From: a virus
Lineage: Duplodnaviria; Heunggongvirae; Uroviricota; Caudoviricetes
DNA: 44,005 nt
IMG/VR virus record: IMGVR_UViG_2579778573_000005
Strand: one strand, 5' to 3'
In this document: piece after piece, positions 23,053 through 37,089 of the stretch
Layout: each line of letters opens with the position of its first letter
Position numbering within the stretch: position 1 is the stretch's first letter
Position numbers and translations under genes: made by a program
Notes under the pieces: model-generated
What the model was told of the DNA's origin: nothing
Databases searched by the model: none
What the model saw: only the letters and a program-made list of their open reading frames with translations

Positions 23053-23232
23053 TTACGCGTCAGGGGGTGTAATAGTATATCCAGCTATTTCTGCCAACTC
23101 GAGAAACGCCATCAGGCTGGCAATCCGCTCATCATCGGTCAGAACACGCACACCAACGATGTGTCCGTCCTTACGCTTGATAACAGCCCGGCATGTTTCC
23201 GGTAGTTCGCCTATAGATTCTTGAATATTCAT
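23053..23232 (-). CDS. Small protein under a LexA box (candidate SOS-inducible antirepressor)
   Basis: 59 codons from ATG 23232 (track ORF extends to a TTG at 23253); G-rich RBS; LexA box 20 bp upstream. Confidence 0.45.
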   Translation of the reverse strand: MNIQESIGELPETCRAVIKRKDGHIVGVRVLTDDERIASLMAFLELAEIAGYTITPPDA

Positions 23233-23252: not shown

Positions 23253-23272
23253 ACCTGTATATTTATACAGTA
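23253..23272. promoter_or_regulatory. LexA (SOS) box
   Basis: ACCTGTATATTTATACAGTA = CTGT-N8-ACAG with AT-rich spacer, near-perfect match to the enterobacterial consensus. Confidence 0.65.
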
Positions 23273-24268: not shown

Positions 24269-24502
24269 ATGGGTACGTTAGGCAACCAGCCGTGCAGAAG
24301 TCGTTATGAGTTCGATGATTTTAATTTAGCCAATCGAGCTGCGGCTCTTACTAAGTTAGCAAAAGAAACTGGTGTATCGGTGGATACCTTAATCAAACTT
24401 GAAATTGCTATGCAACTGAATCGGCTCAACTCCATCCTTATCGAAAACGGTGACAAGATGGACGAGAATCTGGCAGGTATTGGCGAGATACTGCAGAAGT
24501 GA
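24269..24502 (+). CDS. Small putative HTH DNA-binding protein
   Basis: Track ORF 77 aa; GAGGAA RBS; helix-turn-helix-like LTKLAKETGVSVDTLIKLE. Confidence 0.35.
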   Translation: MGTLGNQPCRSRYEFDDFNLANRAAALTKLAKETGVSVDTLIKLEIAMQLNRLNSILIENGDKMDENLAGIGEILQK

Positions 24503-24811
24503 GAGTAGCCCCTCTTCTGAGGGGTTGCACATTTAAAATATTAAGGGCGGTCTTCTTCACGTACACAGTCACCTGGTCGAATCGTTCACGCATACTGAGT
24601 ACAAAAAATCTCAACGATAAGATCAGGTTAGACCTGTATTTTCCAGAAACATATAGACGCCTAAAAAAACACTAAACTCATGATTATCATGTATGTTTTT
24701 ACTGGAAACATTGAACCATCCACAATACAGCGTAAAAAGCAAGCAATTCACAAGATTTTAAAGTGATTTATCTGGAAGACTTTACTACTAACAGTTAATA
24801 TCGTACCAGAA

Positions 24812-24826
24812 GTGCAGAATTTGCAC
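24812..24826. promoter_or_regulatory. Palindromic operator-like site 2
   Basis: GTGCAGAATTTGCAC (perfect 5-5-5 inverted repeat) ~75 bp upstream of the peptidase gene. Confidence 0.4.
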
Positions 24827-24900
24827 TTTTACAGGAATGTGGTACGGAACATGCTGTCTATATTTCAACCAATAATCGTAATGCAGTAACTGGAGGAGCT

Positions 24901-25389
24901 ATGGCTACCAACCCAAGAGAGCACGCCCGGCGAGTGCTGGACACGTTCTGGTGCGGGCGTGGTTTCCCTGTTGATCCAGCGAAAATTGCTCACGACATGG
25001 GATTAGATGTTTTTATTACCGATCTTCCTGGGAAAGTTTCTGGCGCACTGATTAAACAAAAAGATCAAGATCCAGCGATCTTTCTAAACAGTGATGACAA
25101 CAAAGTTCGTCAACGTTTTTCATGTGGGCATGAGTTGGGGCATTACATCGCCCGGCAAGCATCGCATAGCGATGAATATGAGTACGTTGATTTACGTGGC
25201 GAAACCGCAAGCGCCGGAACGCATCCTGATGAAATTTTTGCAAACAAGTTCGCAGCAGAACTTCTGATGCCGGTAGATGAGGTCAGAAAACTGCACGCTG
25301 ACGGTCAACCAAGTTATATAATGGCGCATTATTTTGGCGTATCTGACGATGCGATGACTTATCGTTTAAAGAACTTGAGGTTGGGGTAA
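24901..25389 (+). CDS. ImmA/IrrE-family Zn-metallopeptidase (COG2856/DUF955-like)
   Basis: Track ORF 162 aa; HELGH (HEXXH) motif and downstream EIFANKFAAELLMP motif typical of ImmA/IrrE; GGAGGAG RBS. Confidence 0.8.
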   Translation: MATNPREHARRVLDTFWCGRGFPVDPAKIAHDMGLDVFITDLPGKVSGALIKQKDQDPAIFLNSDDNKVRQRFSCGHELGHYIARQASHSDEYEYVDLRGETASAGTHPDEIFANKFAAELLMPVDEVRKLHADGQPSYIMAHYFGVSDDAMTYRLKNLRLG

Positions 25390-25398
25390 CGCTTTAAA

Positions 25399-26004
25399 AT
25401 GCCATCGGATGACGATTTTAACAGCCGTTTCAAACAGGAAGTAGCACGCAGACTGAAGGATTCCCTCAACCTACACCGTCAGTTAGCAGAAGAGGTTGAG
25501 CCGGAGGACGATGAAACTCCGGTTCAGTCTCCTGACGAAGCTTCACCTCAGCCAAAGGTTTCGCACGCCCCCAAAAAAACGGCTGTCCGTATTCGCGGAA
25601 TAGCCAGAAAAAGAGCTGCCGAAGCTCGCAAAATGGCTGTAGCTGCGTCTAGCAAAAGAATTCCAACTGCTACACCCTCTCAACAAGTCACCCGTACTGA
25701 GAGTAAAATCTTGACCGAGTTCACATCTGTGAAACAGGTGAATTCACTTGATACCGAGCATGAGCGCAAACAACTCAACAACAAAGATTTTGAAGCAGAA
25801 ATCGCTCTAAAAAAACGATACGGGAAATGGTTCCTGATTATCCTTGCTTTCCAACTTCTGATAATGAATGGTGTATTTATTGCCGACGGCGCAGGTAAGC
25901 TGGAATTTGAGGATTTAACACTACAGTTGTACATGGGCGGTACTTTGACAGAGGTATTCGGCCTCGTGCTGGTCGTGACAAAATACCTTTTTAAACGCAA
26001 GTAA
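25399..26004 (+). CDS. Membrane-anchored protein, unknown function
   Basis: Track ORF 201 aa; 10 bp after the peptidase gene; charged N-terminal region, two C-terminal hydrophobic helices. Confidence 0.6.
   Translation: MPSDDDFNSRFKQEVARRLKDSLNLHRQLAEEVEPEDDETPVQSPDEASPQPKVSHAPKKTAVRIRGIARKRAAEARKMAVAASSKRIPTATPSQQVTRTESKILTEFTSVKQVNSLDTEHERKQLNNKDFEAEIALKKRYGKWFLIILAFQLLIMNGVFIADGAGKLEFEDLTLQLYMGGTLTEVFGLVLVVTKYLFKRK
25933..26004 (+). repeat. Direct repeat copy A (last 24 codons of the membrane protein gene)
   Basis: 72 bp, ~90% identical to 30609-30680. Confidence 0.8.
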
Positions 26005-26028
26005 CTCTCTCGGTCCAACAGTCTTTCG

Positions 26029-26050
26029 AAGGCCCTGATCAAAGGGCCTT
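26029..26050 (+). terminator. Hairpin after the peptidase/membrane-protein operon
   Basis: AAGGCCCT-GATCAA-AGGGCCTT, 8-bp stem; weak T content downstream. Confidence 0.4.
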
Positions 26051-26249
26051 GATAAATTAGCAGTGCGTTGAAAACAGATAGTTATTCCCATCAGTTCCAA
26101 CGTAATACACATCAAAAAAATCACCATTCTTTTGCTCTAACGTCAACACCTACCCTTAAAAAAATAATTCTCCAAGAATGAGAAAGTTATTGTGTGTATT
26201 AGATAAGATATGAGCTGACACATCTATGGCGTGGAGCCAAATTTAATAT

Positions 26250-26281
26250 GACAGTCCGCTCTGTGCCATAAGCGGACTGTC
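26250..26281. terminator. 10-bp perfect inverted repeat hairpin between convergent genes
   Basis: GACAGTCCGC ... GCGGACTGTC with 12-nt loop. Confidence 0.35.
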
Positions 26282-26466
26282 AATAAACAGATTCACTTGT
26301 AAATCTTGAAGCTATACATATTTACTTTCAATGATAAATAAAAGAACTATCCAAAAATCACTGAGAGCATATTTTAACTAACCCTCCGCTACTATTAACA
26401 TAAATTTCACCCAACCATAATTAAATTGATACATATAGCAACTTACCTTGATACGAATCATCTGGG

Positions 26467-27165
26467 TTATATTTTTCCATATTTTTTTCCGTCAAATCGA
26501 ATCATGCCAGGATCAAGAAAATTAATTAAATCGATTAACGCGTGCTGTATTCTGATTAGCCTTTCTTTATAAATTCCGATATCTCTTGTCATATTTATCA
26601 CTTCATTGTTTAAATCTAAAAAAAATGGCTCATTGATAAAGCAATTTTCCTTTGTGAAACTGCCGTAACCTATGCAATCAAATCCAGTATCTGTTGATAT
26701 CAGCATCTTTTCTGCAATAGCTCTCTGCTCTCCTATGAAAAACATAAAATACTGACCAAAGACGTCTGTTTGGATTAATGAGTTAATATTGTTCTGTAAT
26801 CTAATAAACTCCCTCATTTTTTTATTTTTTTCTAGGCTAAGGTATTGAATGTCTATGCGGGCAGCTTCTGTCCATGCAAAAAACTGGGAAAAAAGAAAAA
26901 CAGTATTGTTGATAACATAATCTTGTTGGCGCTTATTCCCATTATGATAAAACTCTTCAATGAACCCCAATTCTAATATATTATAAATACGGCTTTGTAA
27001 GTCTGAAGCTGAGCGAATTAACGGTTCAATATAGTACTGATGTTTTCTCCTTACATCCAGTGATTCATTGAGCTTGTTTATTCTATTCTGATTATAAGTA
27101 GATATAGCAATAGAGATTATAGCTATTGCACCACTAATAAAGCTTGAAATTAATGCCGTACCCAT
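26467..27165 (-). CDS. AT-rich gene for N-terminally membrane-anchored protein, unknown function (accessory candidate)
   Basis: Track ORF 232 aa; one N-terminal hydrophobic helix; markedly lower GC than flanking phage genes. Confidence 0.55.
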   Translation of the reverse strand: MGTALISSFISGAIAIISIAISTYNQNRINKLNESLDVRRKHQYYIEPLIRSASDLQSRIYNILELGFIEEFYHNGNKRQQDYVINNTVFLFSQFFAWTEAARIDIQYLSLEKNKKMREFIRLQNNINSLIQTDVFGQYFMFFIGEQRAIAEKMLISTDTGFDCIGYGSFTKENCFINEPFFLDLNNEVINMTRDIGIYKERLIRIQHALIDLINFLDPGMIRFDGKKYGKI

Positions 27166-28305
27166 CTAAAAGTCCTTTGATTCTTGCTTGGTTAACAAAA
27201 TGACATAATTTTATTTAATGCCATAACAACTTAACAATATATCATAATATGATTATTATGGTGTAGCTTGTCGCATCTACGCTCCATTACAAACAGATGT
27301 AAGATATAACCTATATGTTTTAGCCAGCAAATTCGAAAGCATTCAAAGTAGTCTCATCGAACTCTCGAAACCCTATGTCTTCGGGTATAAAATATTTAAA
27401 TCCATTTGCATAATATCGACTCATGTTTATTATATTCTCCCCATTCACCATTAAGATTTGACATTATTTTCAACAATCGGTTATTGCAAGATTGAAATAT
27501 ATTTTTACTTGACACAATATTCCATGTAGCCCAGCGATTCGACTTACCCCCAACTATACGGACAATCTAAATTAAATCGATGATTTTTTGATACATTCTC
27601 CTCTCTCCATTACTTTATGTTTTTGTTCCCCAAAAATACCTTGCTCTCTAAAAAATAATTGTTCTTTAAGTTCAAAATCGAGATCTACATGAGCGTTAGA
27701 TACAAAGCTAATATGTTGAAATGTCTTTCCCCCCCCCATAACGGCATTGTTATCTAAACTATGTTACACAAATATAATATTACCCTTTCAACGTAATCCA
27801 AGAATAAGATTAATGCCATTATATATATCATAAATATGATATTTTGTATATTTTTATCATTTAGCCTTGATTGTACTAGGTGTACTCTCAACGAAGTAGG
27901 GAAAGTCTGTTCCTCGCTCACAGCTGCCCTTCAGTAAGCGAAAAAATGCCTACTCGGTGCCATATACAGCCATTGTTATTAACAGCAGGGAATAATTCAA
28001 AACTGAAATTAAATATCTACCTTTTACAGTAGAAATAGTTCCTCCAGGACACTATCCATTGCCGGGCACAATCACTCGGGGTATAACGATATAAAATATG
28101 TTCATGATAGTGCAGGTTCGTATATTAAGTTCAGCAGCGAAAACATGCCTTACAGGTTTCCGGTTTTGGGAGCGTCGTTACAGGATCCTGCGCATACCGT
28201 TCCCATCTGTTGAATTAAAGGTTTCACAGCCTTTGCCGATATCACCTTTTACCTTACCTGTGATGCGTTCAGTGCTGAAGTGGTCAACAAAAACTGGCCA
28301 CCGAG

Positions 28306-29453
<1,148 letters not shown>

Positions 29454-29606
29454 TATGGCACCTGTGTTGTTCTGAGGTGAGCATATCACCTCTGTTCAGG
29501 TGGCCAAATTCAGTAAACCACTTCATGCTCAGCGTTGTTTACTGTAGCTCTCGGGACTGATTACAGACCGCGTCTTAAAAACCAATCCTTACTCTAAAGG
29601 GAATTC

Positions 29607-30579: not shown

Positions 30580-30608
30580 GTCATCAAGTGCATATGTAAC
30601 TGTTTTAT

Positions 30609-30680
30609 ATGGGCGGTACTTTGACAGAGGTATTCGGTCTCGTGCTGGTCGTGGTCAAATACCTTTTTAAGCGCAAATAG
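30609..30680 (+). repeat. Direct repeat copy B (orphan copy of membrane-protein gene 3' end)
   Basis: Would encode MGGTLTEVFGLVLVVVKYLFKRK; 6 mismatches to copy A. Confidence 0.8.
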
Positions 30681-30704: not shown

Positions 30705-31541
30705 TCAAAATGCTGAATTAGCAACGGATATAGCCGACTTTTTCCCCATTACCATCAATTTATCCAGTGTCATACTTCGCAGATTGTCGCTGTGGATCAC
30801 CAGATACCCTGCCCGCTCAGCGATCTCTTTGAAAGCGTCAAAGGTCATCAGATGTTCGCCTTTGGCAACATGGCGCATCCCGGTCACTTTTCCATTTTTG
30901 ATAGTGGTGATAAAAGAAAAATCTGGAATGGTTGGGTGATTTTCATCGAGTAGCAGGCAGTGGATGTATTCAATCGCCTCTAACATTTGCGTCTGTGACA
31001 GTTGTTCTATGTGAGAGACGGCGAAGCGTTGATGAATCATGGTGTAGGCATCGGGATACATCATGCCTTTCTTGCCGACCAGTATATTAACGGCATCACG
31101 CAAGGGAGTACGGTCATCGGTAGTTGTACTCCGCCTCTCTGGACGCTGGCTAAAATAACAATCTTCCAGCTTTTCGAAAACTTCCCAGGCCTGTTCTGTT
31201 TCCAGCATTTTGGCATGGCGAGCTGCGCCGCGTTCTGTCCAGAGAATGAGGGATCGGGTATGTTTAGCAACTGACTGACTATCTGTCAGTCTGTTTTTGA
31301 AGTCGCGTAATTCATTACCTTCCAGCTTAAAAAAATGCTTTCCTACGACAAATCTGGCGATGTTGCGCTTGAAGTTTTGCTGGATACCATTTACTTCCGT
31401 GCCATACAAACTGGCAAGCAATTCAGTAGTGATGACGGGAAGTTGGTTATGATGTAGCGGAGAAAGGGATTCCGCAGATATTTGGACTGTCATCGCAGTG
31501 GCCTCACTTAGTGTTTTTTTCATCACCACCAGCGACGCCAA
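30705..31541 (-). CDS. Phage antirepressor-like protein (ORF6N-type N-terminal domain)
   Basis: Track ORF 278 aa; start uncertain (internal ATGs at ~31523 and ~31493). Confidence 0.45.
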   Translation of the reverse strand: MASLVVMKKTLSEATAMTVQISAESLSPLHHNQLPVITTELLASLYGTEVNGIQQNFKRNIARFVVGKHFFKLEGNELRDFKNRLTDSQSVAKHTRSLILWTERGAARHAKMLETEQAWEVFEKLEDCYFSQRPERRSTTTDDRTPLRDAVNILVGKKGMMYPDAYTMIHQRFAVSHIEQLSQTQMLEAIEYIHCLLLDENHPTIPDFSFITTIKNGKVTGMRHVAKGEHLMTFDAFKEIAERAGYLVIHSDNLRSMTLDKLMVMGKKSAISVANSAF

Positions 31542-31765
31542 TCATCTGGTGGTGAGCTGTGCAGGGTTGGCGTAACCGGCTAAGTGAACCCGGCGCTTCC
31601 ACAGAAGCCCCCACACAGCCCACCATAATGCGAATGTGGCCGTGCCTAACACATAAAAAAACCGCTAACGCGGCTATGCGTCACTTAGATATCCGGGACG
31701 CCAATCCCGGCAACCGATTTTGCGGCTGCGCGGAAACTATAGCCCCGGACTTTTTCTAAGTCAAT

Positions 31766-36675: not shown

Positions 36676-37089
36676 ATGAACACAAAAACGAAAAACATGG
36701 CTTTTGCTAGCCGACTACAACGGATTCTAAAAGACTTAGGCTGGTCTCAATCTGAGTTAGCTCGCCATATTGGGGTTACGGCTCAATCAGTTCAGGCATG
36801 GTGTAATGGGGTAACTCCAAGAAAAGATAAATTAGACAAGCTAGCAAAAGTGACCGGATACCCTGTTCATTTTTTCTTCATGAATGAAGGGGAATATTTG
36901 GATGAATCCACACTACACCCGGGTAATTACAATCAAGAACTAACCCCGCAAGAACAGGCTCTACTGCAACTATTCAGAGGACTGCCTGAGAGCGAAAAAA
37001 ATAAATTAATCAATGAGCTAAAAGAAAAAAGAGAGCACTTCGATCTACTGCTAAAAGAACTACTTGAAGCCAAAAACCAGACAAAATAG
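36676..37089 (+). CDS. Prophage repressor (CI-like, HTH only, no S24 peptidase domain)
   Basis: Track ORF starts at TTG 36661; first ATG 36676; HTH WSQSELARHIGVTAQSVQAW. Confidence 0.65.
   Translation: MNTKTKNMAFASRLQRILKDLGWSQSELARHIGVTAQSVQAWCNGVTPRKDKLDKLAKVTGYPVHFFFMNEGEYLDESTLHPGNYNQELTPQEQALLQLFRGLPESEKNKLINELKEKREHFDLLLKELLEAKNQTK

Follow-up and report, generated by a model that had tools for sequence, protein, structure and literature searches.

The RosmerTA pair of Gordonia phage Kita, described by Ernits et al. in 2023 (PMC10440598), consists of gp32 (RmrA_D25, YP_009301393) and gp33 (RmrT_D5, YP_009301394), corresponding to NetFlax nodes D25-D5. RmrT_D5 is a pore-forming membrane toxin that depolarizes the membrane and is toxic alone, and the peptidase RmrA_D25 is a partial antitoxin; no complex of the two could be predicted (PMC10440598). 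Together they protect against two BASEL phages, Bas54 and Bas59, a very narrow spectrum (PMC10440598). A comparable two-gene locus is found in the window analyzed here, the whole 44,005-nucleotide sequence of a Caudoviricetes virus (IMG/VR record IMGVR_UViG_2579778573_000005). No literature on this pair came up in searches by accession, COG2856, Peptidase_M78, and MPTase/2TM, and M78 is unmentioned in DefensePredictor and in a metagenomic selection paper; it was the RosmerTA literature that led to Kita.

Both products of the window pair have homologs in Kita. The peptidase is 43% identical to gp32 over 157 aa (BLASTP, E value of 1e-41), and profile A2 scores gp32 at 160.5 bits. The membrane-protein profile A4 recovers gp33 at 30.4 bits by hmmsearch, and hhalign aligns A4 with gp33 across the juxtamembrane helix and both transmembrane (TM) helices (probability of 94.9%, E value of 4.4e-8). 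Reciprocally, an HMM built from gp33 and 10 actinobacterial partners recovers the window gene at 25399 to 26004 with an E value of 4.1e-18 among 5725 open reading frames, and every one of its listed matches that was checked is an open reading frame downstream of an M78 gene. By homology, then, the window pair is a relative of an already tested RosmerTA rather than a new system, and although an earlier sequence-only reading did not recognize the two-gene arrangement as a named system, its homology to RmrA_D25 and RmrT_D5 (PMC10440598) gives it a name.

Architecture of the two-gene locus

Both open reading frames were confirmed on the plus strand, with the peptidase gene (24901 to 25389) preceding the membrane-protein gene (25399 to 26004) in the co-oriented operon arrangement that had been proposed. 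The reported adjacency is likewise real, but the gap is 9 nt (25390 to 25398, plus strand, TAA-CGCTTTAAA-ATG) rather than 10 bp. The 3' end of the peptidase gene contains a G-rich Shine-Dalgarno-like run, and translational coupling of the two genes is plausible because about 20 homologous pairs are spaced at -11 to +19 nt, frequently with a 4-nt overlap. The two open reading frames share a frame, being separated by TAA plus three codons; an in-frame read-through fusion was nevertheless rejected, as frame sharing is not kept in the homologs.

The presumed promoter of the pair is in the upstream region of about 400 nt on the plus strand (24503 to 24900), within which no consensus sigma-70 site was found at the scan threshold. 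It includes an inverted repeat (CGTACCA...TGGTACG, 24803 to 24846) around a GTGCA-N5-TGCAC palindrome. A conserved gene or RNA in this leader was rejected because an alignment of the upstream regions of four modules showed nothing conserved except the ribosome-binding site GGAGGAGCT; Rfam gave no match in the leader, and an upstream 77-aa open reading frame has no Pfam match and does not travel with the homologous modules. Two of the aligned upstream regions are mere tRNA/att remnants. On the other side of the pair, a hairpin with a 13-bp stem (26249 to 26282), called as a terminator-like site on the minus strand, lies between the convergent membrane-protein gene and a 232-aa gene and is likely a shared terminator, presumably acting on the plus-strand operon as well.

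The product of the first gene is a standalone ImmA/IrrE (Peptidase_M78) zinc peptidase of 162 aa, which is predicted to be an RmrA-type antitoxin. It matches Pfam family PF06114 over its full length (E value of 7.7e-18, 64.9 bits against a score cutoff of 22 bits) and contains the motifs H77-E78-L-G-H81 and E111-I-F-A-N-K-F-A-A-E-L-L-M-P, in which the zinc site residues H77, E78, H81, and E111 are intact and invariant in an alignment of 22 homologs. In an AF2 model (pLDDT of 88.8), the best superpositions were with CapP, IrrE, and PprI, and the best matches in the PDB were CapP (7t5t) and IrrE (3dte). The model aligns with the N-terminal two-thirds of the solved structures of CapP (278 residues) and IrrE (247 residues), with TMq values of 0.62 to 0.66 and TMt values of 0.41 to 0.44; at 162 aa versus about 280 aa, the protein is without the GAF-like sensor domain found at the C terminus of IrrE and CapP. 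HMM match, HEXXH motif with E111, and fold together confirm the ImmA/IrrE identity assigned from the sequence alone, and a Pfam scan of the 162-aa product agrees that there is no fused helix-turn-helix (HTH) domain. The PADLOC capP model also matches the peptidase (2.4e-25, profile positions 3 to 151 of 242), as do the RmrA models, with values down to 5.8e-12, in the peptidase part of the models only (for example, positions 166 to 266 of 363). No PADLOC model matched the membrane protein.

The second gene encodes a 201-aa membrane protein, a predicted pore-forming toxin of the RmrT_D5 family. Its AF2 model (pTM of 0.28) is a simple helical hairpin at the C terminus, composed of a juxtamembrane helix with TM1 (residues 119 to 164) and TM2 (residues 172 to 199), preceded by an N-terminal helix (residues 4 to 32) and a disordered hypervariable linker of about 85 residues (34 to 118). 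Hydropathy places the two C-terminal hydrophobic helices at residues 144 to 162 and 175 to 193, so both methods uphold the two helices noted originally. In alignments A1 and A4 of the family, Q152, N157, G181, E185, L197, and F198 are conserved, and the conserved polar residues within the hairpin are Q152, N157, T182, and E185. The part shared across phyla is the core alone, the juxtamembrane amphipathic helix and two TM helices encoded at 25753 to 25995 (plus strand); the N-terminal helix is conserved in Enterobacterales, and the N-terminal region is not conserved elsewhere. A conserved core is thereby defined for a toxin family that is not modeled in Pfam, NCBIfam, or PADLOC, none of these collections giving a match to the 201-aa protein in profile scans. 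The family comprises 659 clusters, of which the best 150 are all 50 to 240 aa long and include no domain fusion that hints at function. An 81-nt relic elsewhere in the window (30599 to 30679, plus strand), 89% identical to 25923 to 26003 (direct repeat D1), corresponds to the 3' end (last 26 codons and stop) of the membrane-protein gene in a different allelic form. In a sister prophage without the pair, the same 81-nt relic stands after the LprI gene.

Distribution and genomic setting

In Proteobacteria, Actinobacteria, Cyanobacteria, Bacillus, and Saccharibacteria alike, the membrane-protein gene comes after a standalone M78 gene. Starting from the peptidase, about 20 of the 30 nearest standalone M78 genes in other phyla precede, at -11 to +19 nt, a gene for a homologous two-TM protein. 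Starting from the membrane protein, all three of the family members chosen have an M78 gene directly before them (Pfam called it in two; the third is truncated and unannotated). The pair is widely conserved, and the pairing is ancient and looks obligate. The two genes travel together as one module, which is found beside int/att in prophages of Escherichia coli and Klebsiella, between Q and the holin gene in a prophage of Serratia, in a P4-like satellite of Pectobacterium, in a Mu-like phage, and in Kita between the tail genes and the integrase, and which is also present at nonprophage chromosomal sites. With these occurrences, the range of Kita-type RosmerTA is widened beyond actinobacteriophages to prophages and satellites of enterobacteria and to many other phyla. 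When 109 small open reading frames lying up to 900 nt from 25 modules (that of the window among them) were scanned with Pfam, no XRE/HTH family partner was found, and the idea of a hidden one was rejected. Around 16 distant pairs, the 132 neighboring open reading frames are mostly housekeeping genes with few defense or phage genes, which lends no support to an enrichment of defense islands.

In the window, the host element is a lambdoid prophage and the pair occupies a variable island. On either side, the phage genes run on the minus strand, antisense to the pair, and the cI-like repressor gene (36697 to 37089) is about 11 kb away; the sequence-only reading was accurate in placing the pair opposite to the phage operons, far from the cro/cI switch, and in an accessory island, which does vary between sister prophages. 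In one sister E. coli prophage, the same island contains PD-T4-3 (PADLOC E value of 5.7e-138) and an HNH gene in place of the pair, and the nin-to-Q island of this prophage is marked as a site where defense cargo is swapped. The cI-like repressors of prophages bearing the pair are short and HTH-only, that of this prophage being 130 aa long and without an S24 domain. Two other candidate induction devices are present in this prophage: a 59-aa gene whose -10 element lies under a near-consensus LexA box (TACTGTATAAATATACAGGT), and a C4 antisense RNA/isrK locus directly upstream of an ORF6N antirepressor-like gene. Of 5426 complete E. coli genomes, 457 carry the pair, ST131 strains included; in one strain, AR_451, an IS1 element lies within the membrane-protein gene and the peptidase gene is intact.

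Predicted function and alternative explanations

The pair is quite probably a RosmerTA-type toxin-antitoxin (TA) and abortive-infection module of the Kita kind, and we infer from the homology that the E. coli pair would behave like the Kita pair. By homology, the 201-aa protein would insert into the inner membrane via its C-terminal helical hairpin and, if unrestrained, would oligomerize into a pore, depolarizing and permeabilizing the membrane and halting growth. The zinc peptidase, co-transcribed with it, would be the antitoxin that restrains it in the lysogen, the prophage carrying the pair as lysogen-expressed cargo in a defense hotspot. Certain phage infections would break this restraint, and the infected cell would shut down before the phage cycle is completed. 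The earlier proposal of a candidate abortive-infection or defense system is broadly right, because the Kita pair blocks some coliphages and the sister prophage has the validated PD-T4-3 in the same island; the "peptidase-gated" polarity that came with it is probably reversed, judging from the tested Kita homolog. The peptidase is predicted to be an antitoxin rather than an activating gate because in Kita the membrane protein is toxic alone and is partly neutralized by the peptidase. A likely function can thus be proposed for two genes, annotated as hypothetical or ImmA family, that about 8% of the complete E. coli genomes carry, those of pandemic ST131 among them.

How the restraint might work is a more speculative matter: the peptidase may cleave the toxin in its disordered cytoplasmic region or juxtamembrane helix, or may simply bind it. 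One tentative and rather doubtful suggestion is that the antitoxin is proteolytic, continually cleaving the cytoplasmic juxtamembrane or linker region of the toxin rather than binding it, with the N-terminal helix and hypervariable linker as a fast-evolving sensor or bait. Phage proteins engaging the helix or linker would then shield the toxin from cleavage and set off abortive infection. Proteolysis of this kind would explain the catalytically intact M78 in roughly 600 family clusters without a repressor substrate and, if true, a toxin kept harmless by its own partner's enzymatic cleavage would be a distinct TA mechanism. The native E. coli pair is suited to direct study of an HTH-less ImmA/IrrE peptidase restraining a membrane toxin.

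The opposite polarity, in which the N-terminal helix and linker hold the membrane protein inactive until the peptidase senses infection and cleaves its cytoplasmic region to free an active pore, is a good deal less probable than a restraining peptidase and is, on the whole, quite unlikely. The M78 relatives ImmA, IrrE, and CapP are signal-activated, site-specific proteases. The infection cue could be, for example, single-stranded DNA (ssDNA), as for CapP and PprI, the latter having been solved bound to ssDNA (PDB 8sln), and Kita gp33 has no equivalent of the conserved N-terminal helix and the disordered linker of 85 residues in the enterobacterial proteins. Beyond Enterobacterales, however, the pairing is conserved and that N-terminal region is not; the peptidase is without the C-terminal GAF-like sensor of IrrE and CapP; and the Kita membrane protein alone is immediately toxic, with the peptidase lowering its toxicity (PMC10440598). 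A role in addiction or stress without phage defense, or alternatively a nonlethal superinfection-exclusion membrane protein trimmed by the peptidase, is unlikely, although distant pairs are mostly among housekeeping genes, where a selfish TA or stress module fits as well as dedicated defense. Protection by the Kita pair against only two BASEL phages (PMC10440598) and the IS1 insertion in AR_451, which leaves the peptidase intact in the pattern expected for toxin loss, point the same way. Set against these are the typical prophage and satellite cargo sites of the enterobacterial pairs, the occupation of the pair's island slot by PD-T4-3 in the sister phage, and the protection against phage that a homolog does provide (PMC10440598).

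Induction control is a very improbable role. ImmA-type proteases are able to act on repressors, and those of the prophages with the pair are short, HTH-only, and cI-like, so that an ImmA-like antirepressor might cleave the 130-aa XRE repressor of this prophage while the membrane protein tethers or regulates the peptidase. The second antirepressor circuit suggested in the sequence-only reading is unsupported, however: none of the 109 small open reading frames near the 25 modules is of an HTH/XRE family, the module also occupies nonprophage chromosomal sites, the 11 kb between the pair and the immunity region is accompanied by a position that differs between phages, and the prophage already has the LexA-boxed gene and the C4 RNA/isrK-ORF6N locus.

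Comparison with described systems

In its original definition (Millman et al. [quoted passage not shown] PADLOC 2.0 models RosmerTA with RmrA (HTH and peptidase) and RmrT profiles, and the window pair gives neither a full-length RmrA match nor an RmrT match: only the C-terminal peptidase part of the RmrA models (357 to 400 aa) aligns, at profile positions of about 145 to 291, the window peptidase being without the N-terminal HTH, and the RmrT models do not match the 201-aa protein. The ImmR/ImmA (ICEBs1), DdrO/IrrE (Deinococcus), and CapH/CapP (CBASS regulator) switches have the M78 catalytic fold and zinc site in common with the window peptidase, whose closest relatives of solved structure are CapP and IrrE. 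Their proteases cleave an XRE-family repressor, which is encoded beside the protease in ImmR/ImmA and CapH/CapP, and IrrE and CapP have a C-terminal GAF-like domain; the window peptidase has neither that domain nor an HTH partner, and its conserved partner is a membrane protein. The E. coli defense system PD-lambda-2 (Vassallo et al. 2022) shares the ImmA/IrrE peptidase domain but has three genes, one for a HigB-like toxin, one for a HigA-HTH-peptidase fusion, and one for a P4-antitoxin-like protein. Of these components, the window locus has the peptidase domain and no other, and there is no PADLOC PD-Lambda-2 match. In Panacea (PanA)/PanT systems, such as that of B. choladocola PanT_D11, a small depolarizing toxin with C-terminal TM helices is neutralized by an adjacent "hub" antitoxin domain, and Ernits et al. 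compared RmrT_D5 with PanT (PMC10440598). The Panacea antitoxin domain is DUF4065/Panacea, whereas that of the window is M78.

The Kita pair shares the most with the window. Each protein of the one pair is homologous to its counterpart in the other. In both pairs, a standalone Peptidase_M78 gene comes first and is followed, in the same orientation and at tight spacing, by a gene for a small protein with C-terminal TM helices, and both are temperate-phage cargo outside the immunity region. The two differ in host phylum, in phage type, and in spacing, the genes being 9 nt apart in the window and overlapping by 4 nt in Kita. The toxin is 201 aa long here and 119 aa long in gp33, and only the former has the conserved N-terminal helix specific to Enterobacterales and the long, hypervariable, disordered linker, by which the enterobacterial toxin could be regulated differently.

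A standalone M78 peptidase gene and its membrane-protein partner

The peptidase gene (24901-25389, +) and the membrane-protein gene (25399-26004, +) are the sole long plus-strand ORFs in a region whose phage genes are all read from the minus strand, as the sequence-only reading had described. The 162-aa product of the first gene aligns over its full length with Pfam Peptidase_M78 (IrrE N-terminal-like; E = 7.7e-18), confirming it as an ImmA/IrrE-type peptidase, and also matches phrog_87 ("metallo-protease"). The PADLOC capP model matches over its N-terminal 151 of 242 profile positions (2.4e-25), and many PADLOC RmrA models match solely over their peptidase half. Across 22 homologues, H77, E78, H81, and E111 do not vary, nor does Cys75, a clade-specific residue just ahead of the HEXXH motif that is also found in gp32 of Gordonia phage Kita, whereas CapP as aligned has Gln there. 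The AlphaFold2 model (pLDDT, 88.8) superposes most closely on CapP (7t5t), IrrE (3dte), and PprI (8sln), with TMq values of 0.62 to 0.66, in agreement with the sequence comparison. It covers only the N-terminal two-thirds of these proteins, and their C-terminal GAF-like domain is therefore absent. No HTH was found among the Pfam domains of the peptidase, in line with the earlier reading.

The 201-aa membrane protein belongs to no family in Pfam, NCBIfam, or PADLOC, its single PHROG match being of unknown function. Its AlphaFold2 model consists of an N-terminal helix (residues 4 to 32), a disordered segment (34 to 118), a long helix (119 to 164) that enters TM1, a short loop, and TM2 (172 to 199); the two TMs agree with the earlier description, and with this hairpin layout both ends should be cytoplasmic. 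The conserved core reads LD...D..D..LKK.YA.WF..IL..QL..MN.VFI.VG.G.L.F....L.LY.GGTL.EVFG.VLVIT.YLF., and both of its TM helices contain conserved polar residues. The two genes are closely spaced as reported, but the gap is 9 nt rather than ten. Both ORFs (24901-26004) share a reading frame, with just TAA and three codons between them; read-through fusion is nevertheless unlikely, since frame sharing is not kept in homologous pairs, some of which overlap by 4 nt.

Conservation and genomic settings of the pair

Close homologues of both proteins share contigs in Klebsiella, Enterobacter, Salmonella, Cronobacter, Serratia, Leclercia, and Plesiomonas, with identities of 75 to 89% for the peptidase and 41 to 52% overall for the membrane protein. 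In the latter, the N-terminal helix is conserved, the linker varies in length and sequence, and the C-terminal 85 residues are nearly invariant. When peptidase relatives were scanned in one genome per species, the closest 30 standalone M78 genes came from Proteobacteria, Actinobacteria, Cyanobacteria, Bacillus, Saccharibacteria, and others, and for most of them the next gene, at a spacing of -11 to +19 nt, encodes a 110- to 175-aa protein with two C-terminal TMs; about 20 of these partner proteins match the enterobacterial profile (juxtamembrane helix and both TMs). A HMMER search with the membrane-protein family against 1.84 billion representatives returned 659 clusters, none covered by a Pfam family. 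The 150 listed are all 49 to 236 aa long, with the conserved module C-terminal in every one and no domain fusions. Three arbitrarily picked members all have a gene immediately upstream, which encodes a Pfam Peptidase_M78 protein in two cases and is a truncated 159-aa ORF in the third. The pairing is ancient and, judged from either gene, looks obligate.

The pair moves as a two-gene unit. It adjoins the integrase/att site in E. coli and Klebsiella prophages, lies between Q and holin in a Serratia prophage, is carried by a P4-like satellite in Pectobacterium, precedes the lysis genes in a Mu-like phage, and is flanked by housekeeping genes in Endozoicomonas and an uncultured organism. No conservation was found in the 400 nt upstream. 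Among 109 small ORFs lying no more than 900 nt from 25 modules, the Pfam scan identified no HTH/XRE family; the partner that defines ImmR/ImmA-type and CapH/CapP-type switches is thus missing. Of 132 larger neighbours counted around 16 distant pairs, most are housekeeping genes, and a few are restriction-modification and phage genes; outside enterobacterial mobile elements, gene context itself gives no argument for defence.

More distant standalone M78 peptidases precede other, unrelated small membrane proteins (comparison loci L035, L038, L044, L058, L070, and L079). One type has two TMs and a C-terminal amphipathic helix, as in P2-like gp42 (L106, NC_070905.1, 31040-32216), Moraxella, and others; a further type, exemplified by gp33 of Mycobacterium phage Che9c (L107, 27464-28359) and some Acidimicrobiia, has one TM, at its C terminus. 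The arrangement of an M78 peptidase plus a small membrane protein thus recurs, and its partners fall into at least three families. Near the right end of its genome, in the region where P2 carries tin/old, lies the P2-like pair.

The host prophage and its cargo island

The prophage that makes up the window is lambdoid, has a contractile tail, and is integrated next to tRNA-Leu/Cys/Gly, close to pgsA-uvrC; its region was found in 457 of 5,426 complete E. coli genomes, including ST131 strains such as JJ1887. The accessory island proposed earlier as the location of the pair is borne out: its borders are an LprI-family lipoprotein gene and a conserved 213-aa gene that adjoins the Q/DUF1367 block, and a sister prophage in strain TUM13936 (L103/L104, NZ_CP134358.1, 2029000-2038700) carries other cargo between the same borders. 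There, a gene for PD-T4-3, a GIY-YIG defence protein of full length (PADLOC E = 5.7e-138), is accompanied by an HNH endonuclease gene and three hypothetical genes. Cargo is therefore exchanged at this island, which holds at least one experimentally validated defence gene, and the presence of PD-T4-3 marks this nin-to-Q island as a defence-cargo hotspot.

Right behind the LprI gene and its hairpin lies a relic of 81 nt from the 3' end of a second membrane-protein allele (30599-30679, +; 89% identical to 25923-26003), encoding ...LFYMGGTLTEVFGLVLVVVKYLFKRK and a stop codon. The TUM13936 prophage, without the pair, has the same relic 3' of LprI. The end of the gene evidently served as a junction in past recombination.

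Upstream of the pair, a 77-aa ORF (24269-24502, +; phrog_5550, function unknown) followed by a GC-rich hairpin contains a stretch, LTKLAKETGVSVDTLIKLE, that is HTH-like by eye; the ORF has no Pfam match and does not travel with the pair in other genomes. Downstream, the gene at 26467-27165 (-) encodes a 232-aa protein with a single TM helix, at its N terminus; the block that contains it has 32% GC, versus about 46% for the pair, and its surroundings (26000-28200) are AT-rich. The DNA of this gene is 90% identical to "ORF1, putative lysogenic protein," from the Z-region cassette of P2-EC58 (AJ512683), flanked there by annotated inverted repeats, and the protein matches the DRT-associated RTasTM model of PADLOC weakly (1.8e-5). 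P2-like and lambdoid prophages may have it in common as an independent single-gene cargo. An IS3-family element, which we take to be IS911-like, occupies about 28276-29525 (orfA, 29151-29489; orfB, 28306-29124; both -) between 27-nt terminal inverted repeats (28276-28302 and 29499-29525); it is missing in JJ1887, where the LprI gene is about 1.25 kb closer.

Role of the pair and comparison with RosmerTA

No paper on this pair was found under COG2856, M78, or accession numbers; the PADLOC RmrA matches pointed to RosmerTA, defined as a Zn-peptidase antitoxin with a toxin of unknown function (Millman et al.). The RosmerTA pair of phage Kita was validated by Ernits et al. 2023 (PMC10440598). Its antitoxin RmrA_D25 (gp32) consists of Peptidase_M78 only, and its toxin RmrT_D5 (gp33) is described as "transmembrane," without similarity to known families. 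RmrT_D5 expression stops growth immediately, abolishes translation, transcription, and replication, and depolarises and permeabilises the membrane, indicating pore formation; RmrA_D25 neutralises it only partially, and AlphaFold failed to predict their complex (pDockQ, 0.05). In E. coli, the Kita pair protects against BASEL phages Bas54 and Bas59 only (PMC10440598).

By homology to the Kita pair, the 201-aa protein would be a membrane-depolarising toxin and the peptidase its antitoxin, expressed from the prophage, and the pair is most likely an abortive-infection or toxin-antitoxin module. Toxicity, partial neutralisation, and defence were shown for the Kita homologue alone, and we infer like behaviour for the E. 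coli pair. Neutralisation could proceed by binding or by cleavage, the latter being attractive given an invariant catalytic site in a protein with no repressor to act on. The sequence-only reading had instead proposed a peptidase-gated effector, a polarity that amounts to activation by cleavage. The longer enterobacterial protein could differ from the Kita toxin, but the latter is toxic alone (PMC10440598), which contradicts this polarity and makes the reverse probable. In E. coli AR_451 (L102, NZ_CP030337.1, 1673459-1674722), IS1 lies inside the membrane-protein gene, leaving a 171-aa ORF that has lost TM2, while the peptidase gene is intact; this single case fits the membrane protein as the harmful partner. 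In several other strains (L101), IS1 sits beyond the gene, in the intergenic DNA downstream of it.

A pure addiction or stress toxin-antitoxin module is allowed by the housekeeping contexts of distant pairs and by the narrow protection spectrum of the Kita pair (PMC10440598). The second anti-repressor circuit suggested earlier is unlikely, since no XRE partner adjoins any of the 25 modules scanned, the pair occurs outside phages too, and two other candidate induction devices are already present in the prophage. One is a 59-aa gene (23053-23232, -; WP_001025459), conserved in sister prophages and a candidate SOS-induced small antirepressor, whose apparent -10 is overlapped by a near-consensus LexA box, TACTGTATAAATATACAGGT (23253-23272, read on -; chance expectation for the 16-nt core alone, 0.57 per window). 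The other is a C4 antisense RNA/isrK locus (31545-31742, -; Rfam C4, 75 bits; a1/b1 target, 53 bits; isrK, 80 bits) with a 278-aa ORF6N-domain antirepressor-like gene directly 3' (30705-31541, -), a P1/P7 immI-like antirepressor control locus within a lambdoid prophage.

The likeness to the Kita pair extends to both proteins. Kita gp32 and the window peptidase share 43% identity across 157 aa (E = 1e-41). Against gp33, the membrane-protein profile scores 30.4 bits, and hhalign aligns the two over the juxtamembrane helix and both TMs (probability, 94.9%; E = 4.4e-8). A reciprocal HMM of gp33 and ten actinobacterial partners, searched against all 5,725 six-frame ORFs of the window and the comparison loci, matches the window membrane protein (E = 4.1e-18), and the checked matches among those listed are all the ORF directly 3' of an M78 gene. 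Gene order is identical, and the Kita pair sits between tail genes and integrase, the usual site of lysogen-expressed cargo in actinobacteriophages. Identity, architecture, homology, pairing, and hotspot location were all shown in this analysis. The earlier proposal of a defence module was thus broadly right, the Kita homologue being protective, but the arrangement does belong to a named system. The native E. coli pair would be a convenient system for solving how Kita-type RosmerTA toxins are neutralised. On sequence grounds, it belongs to the Kita-type RosmerTA family as an enterobacterial member with a long linker, its branch being distinguished by an Enterobacterales-specific N-terminal helix and a hypervariable linker; what is new is this member, RosmerTA itself having already been named as a defence system.
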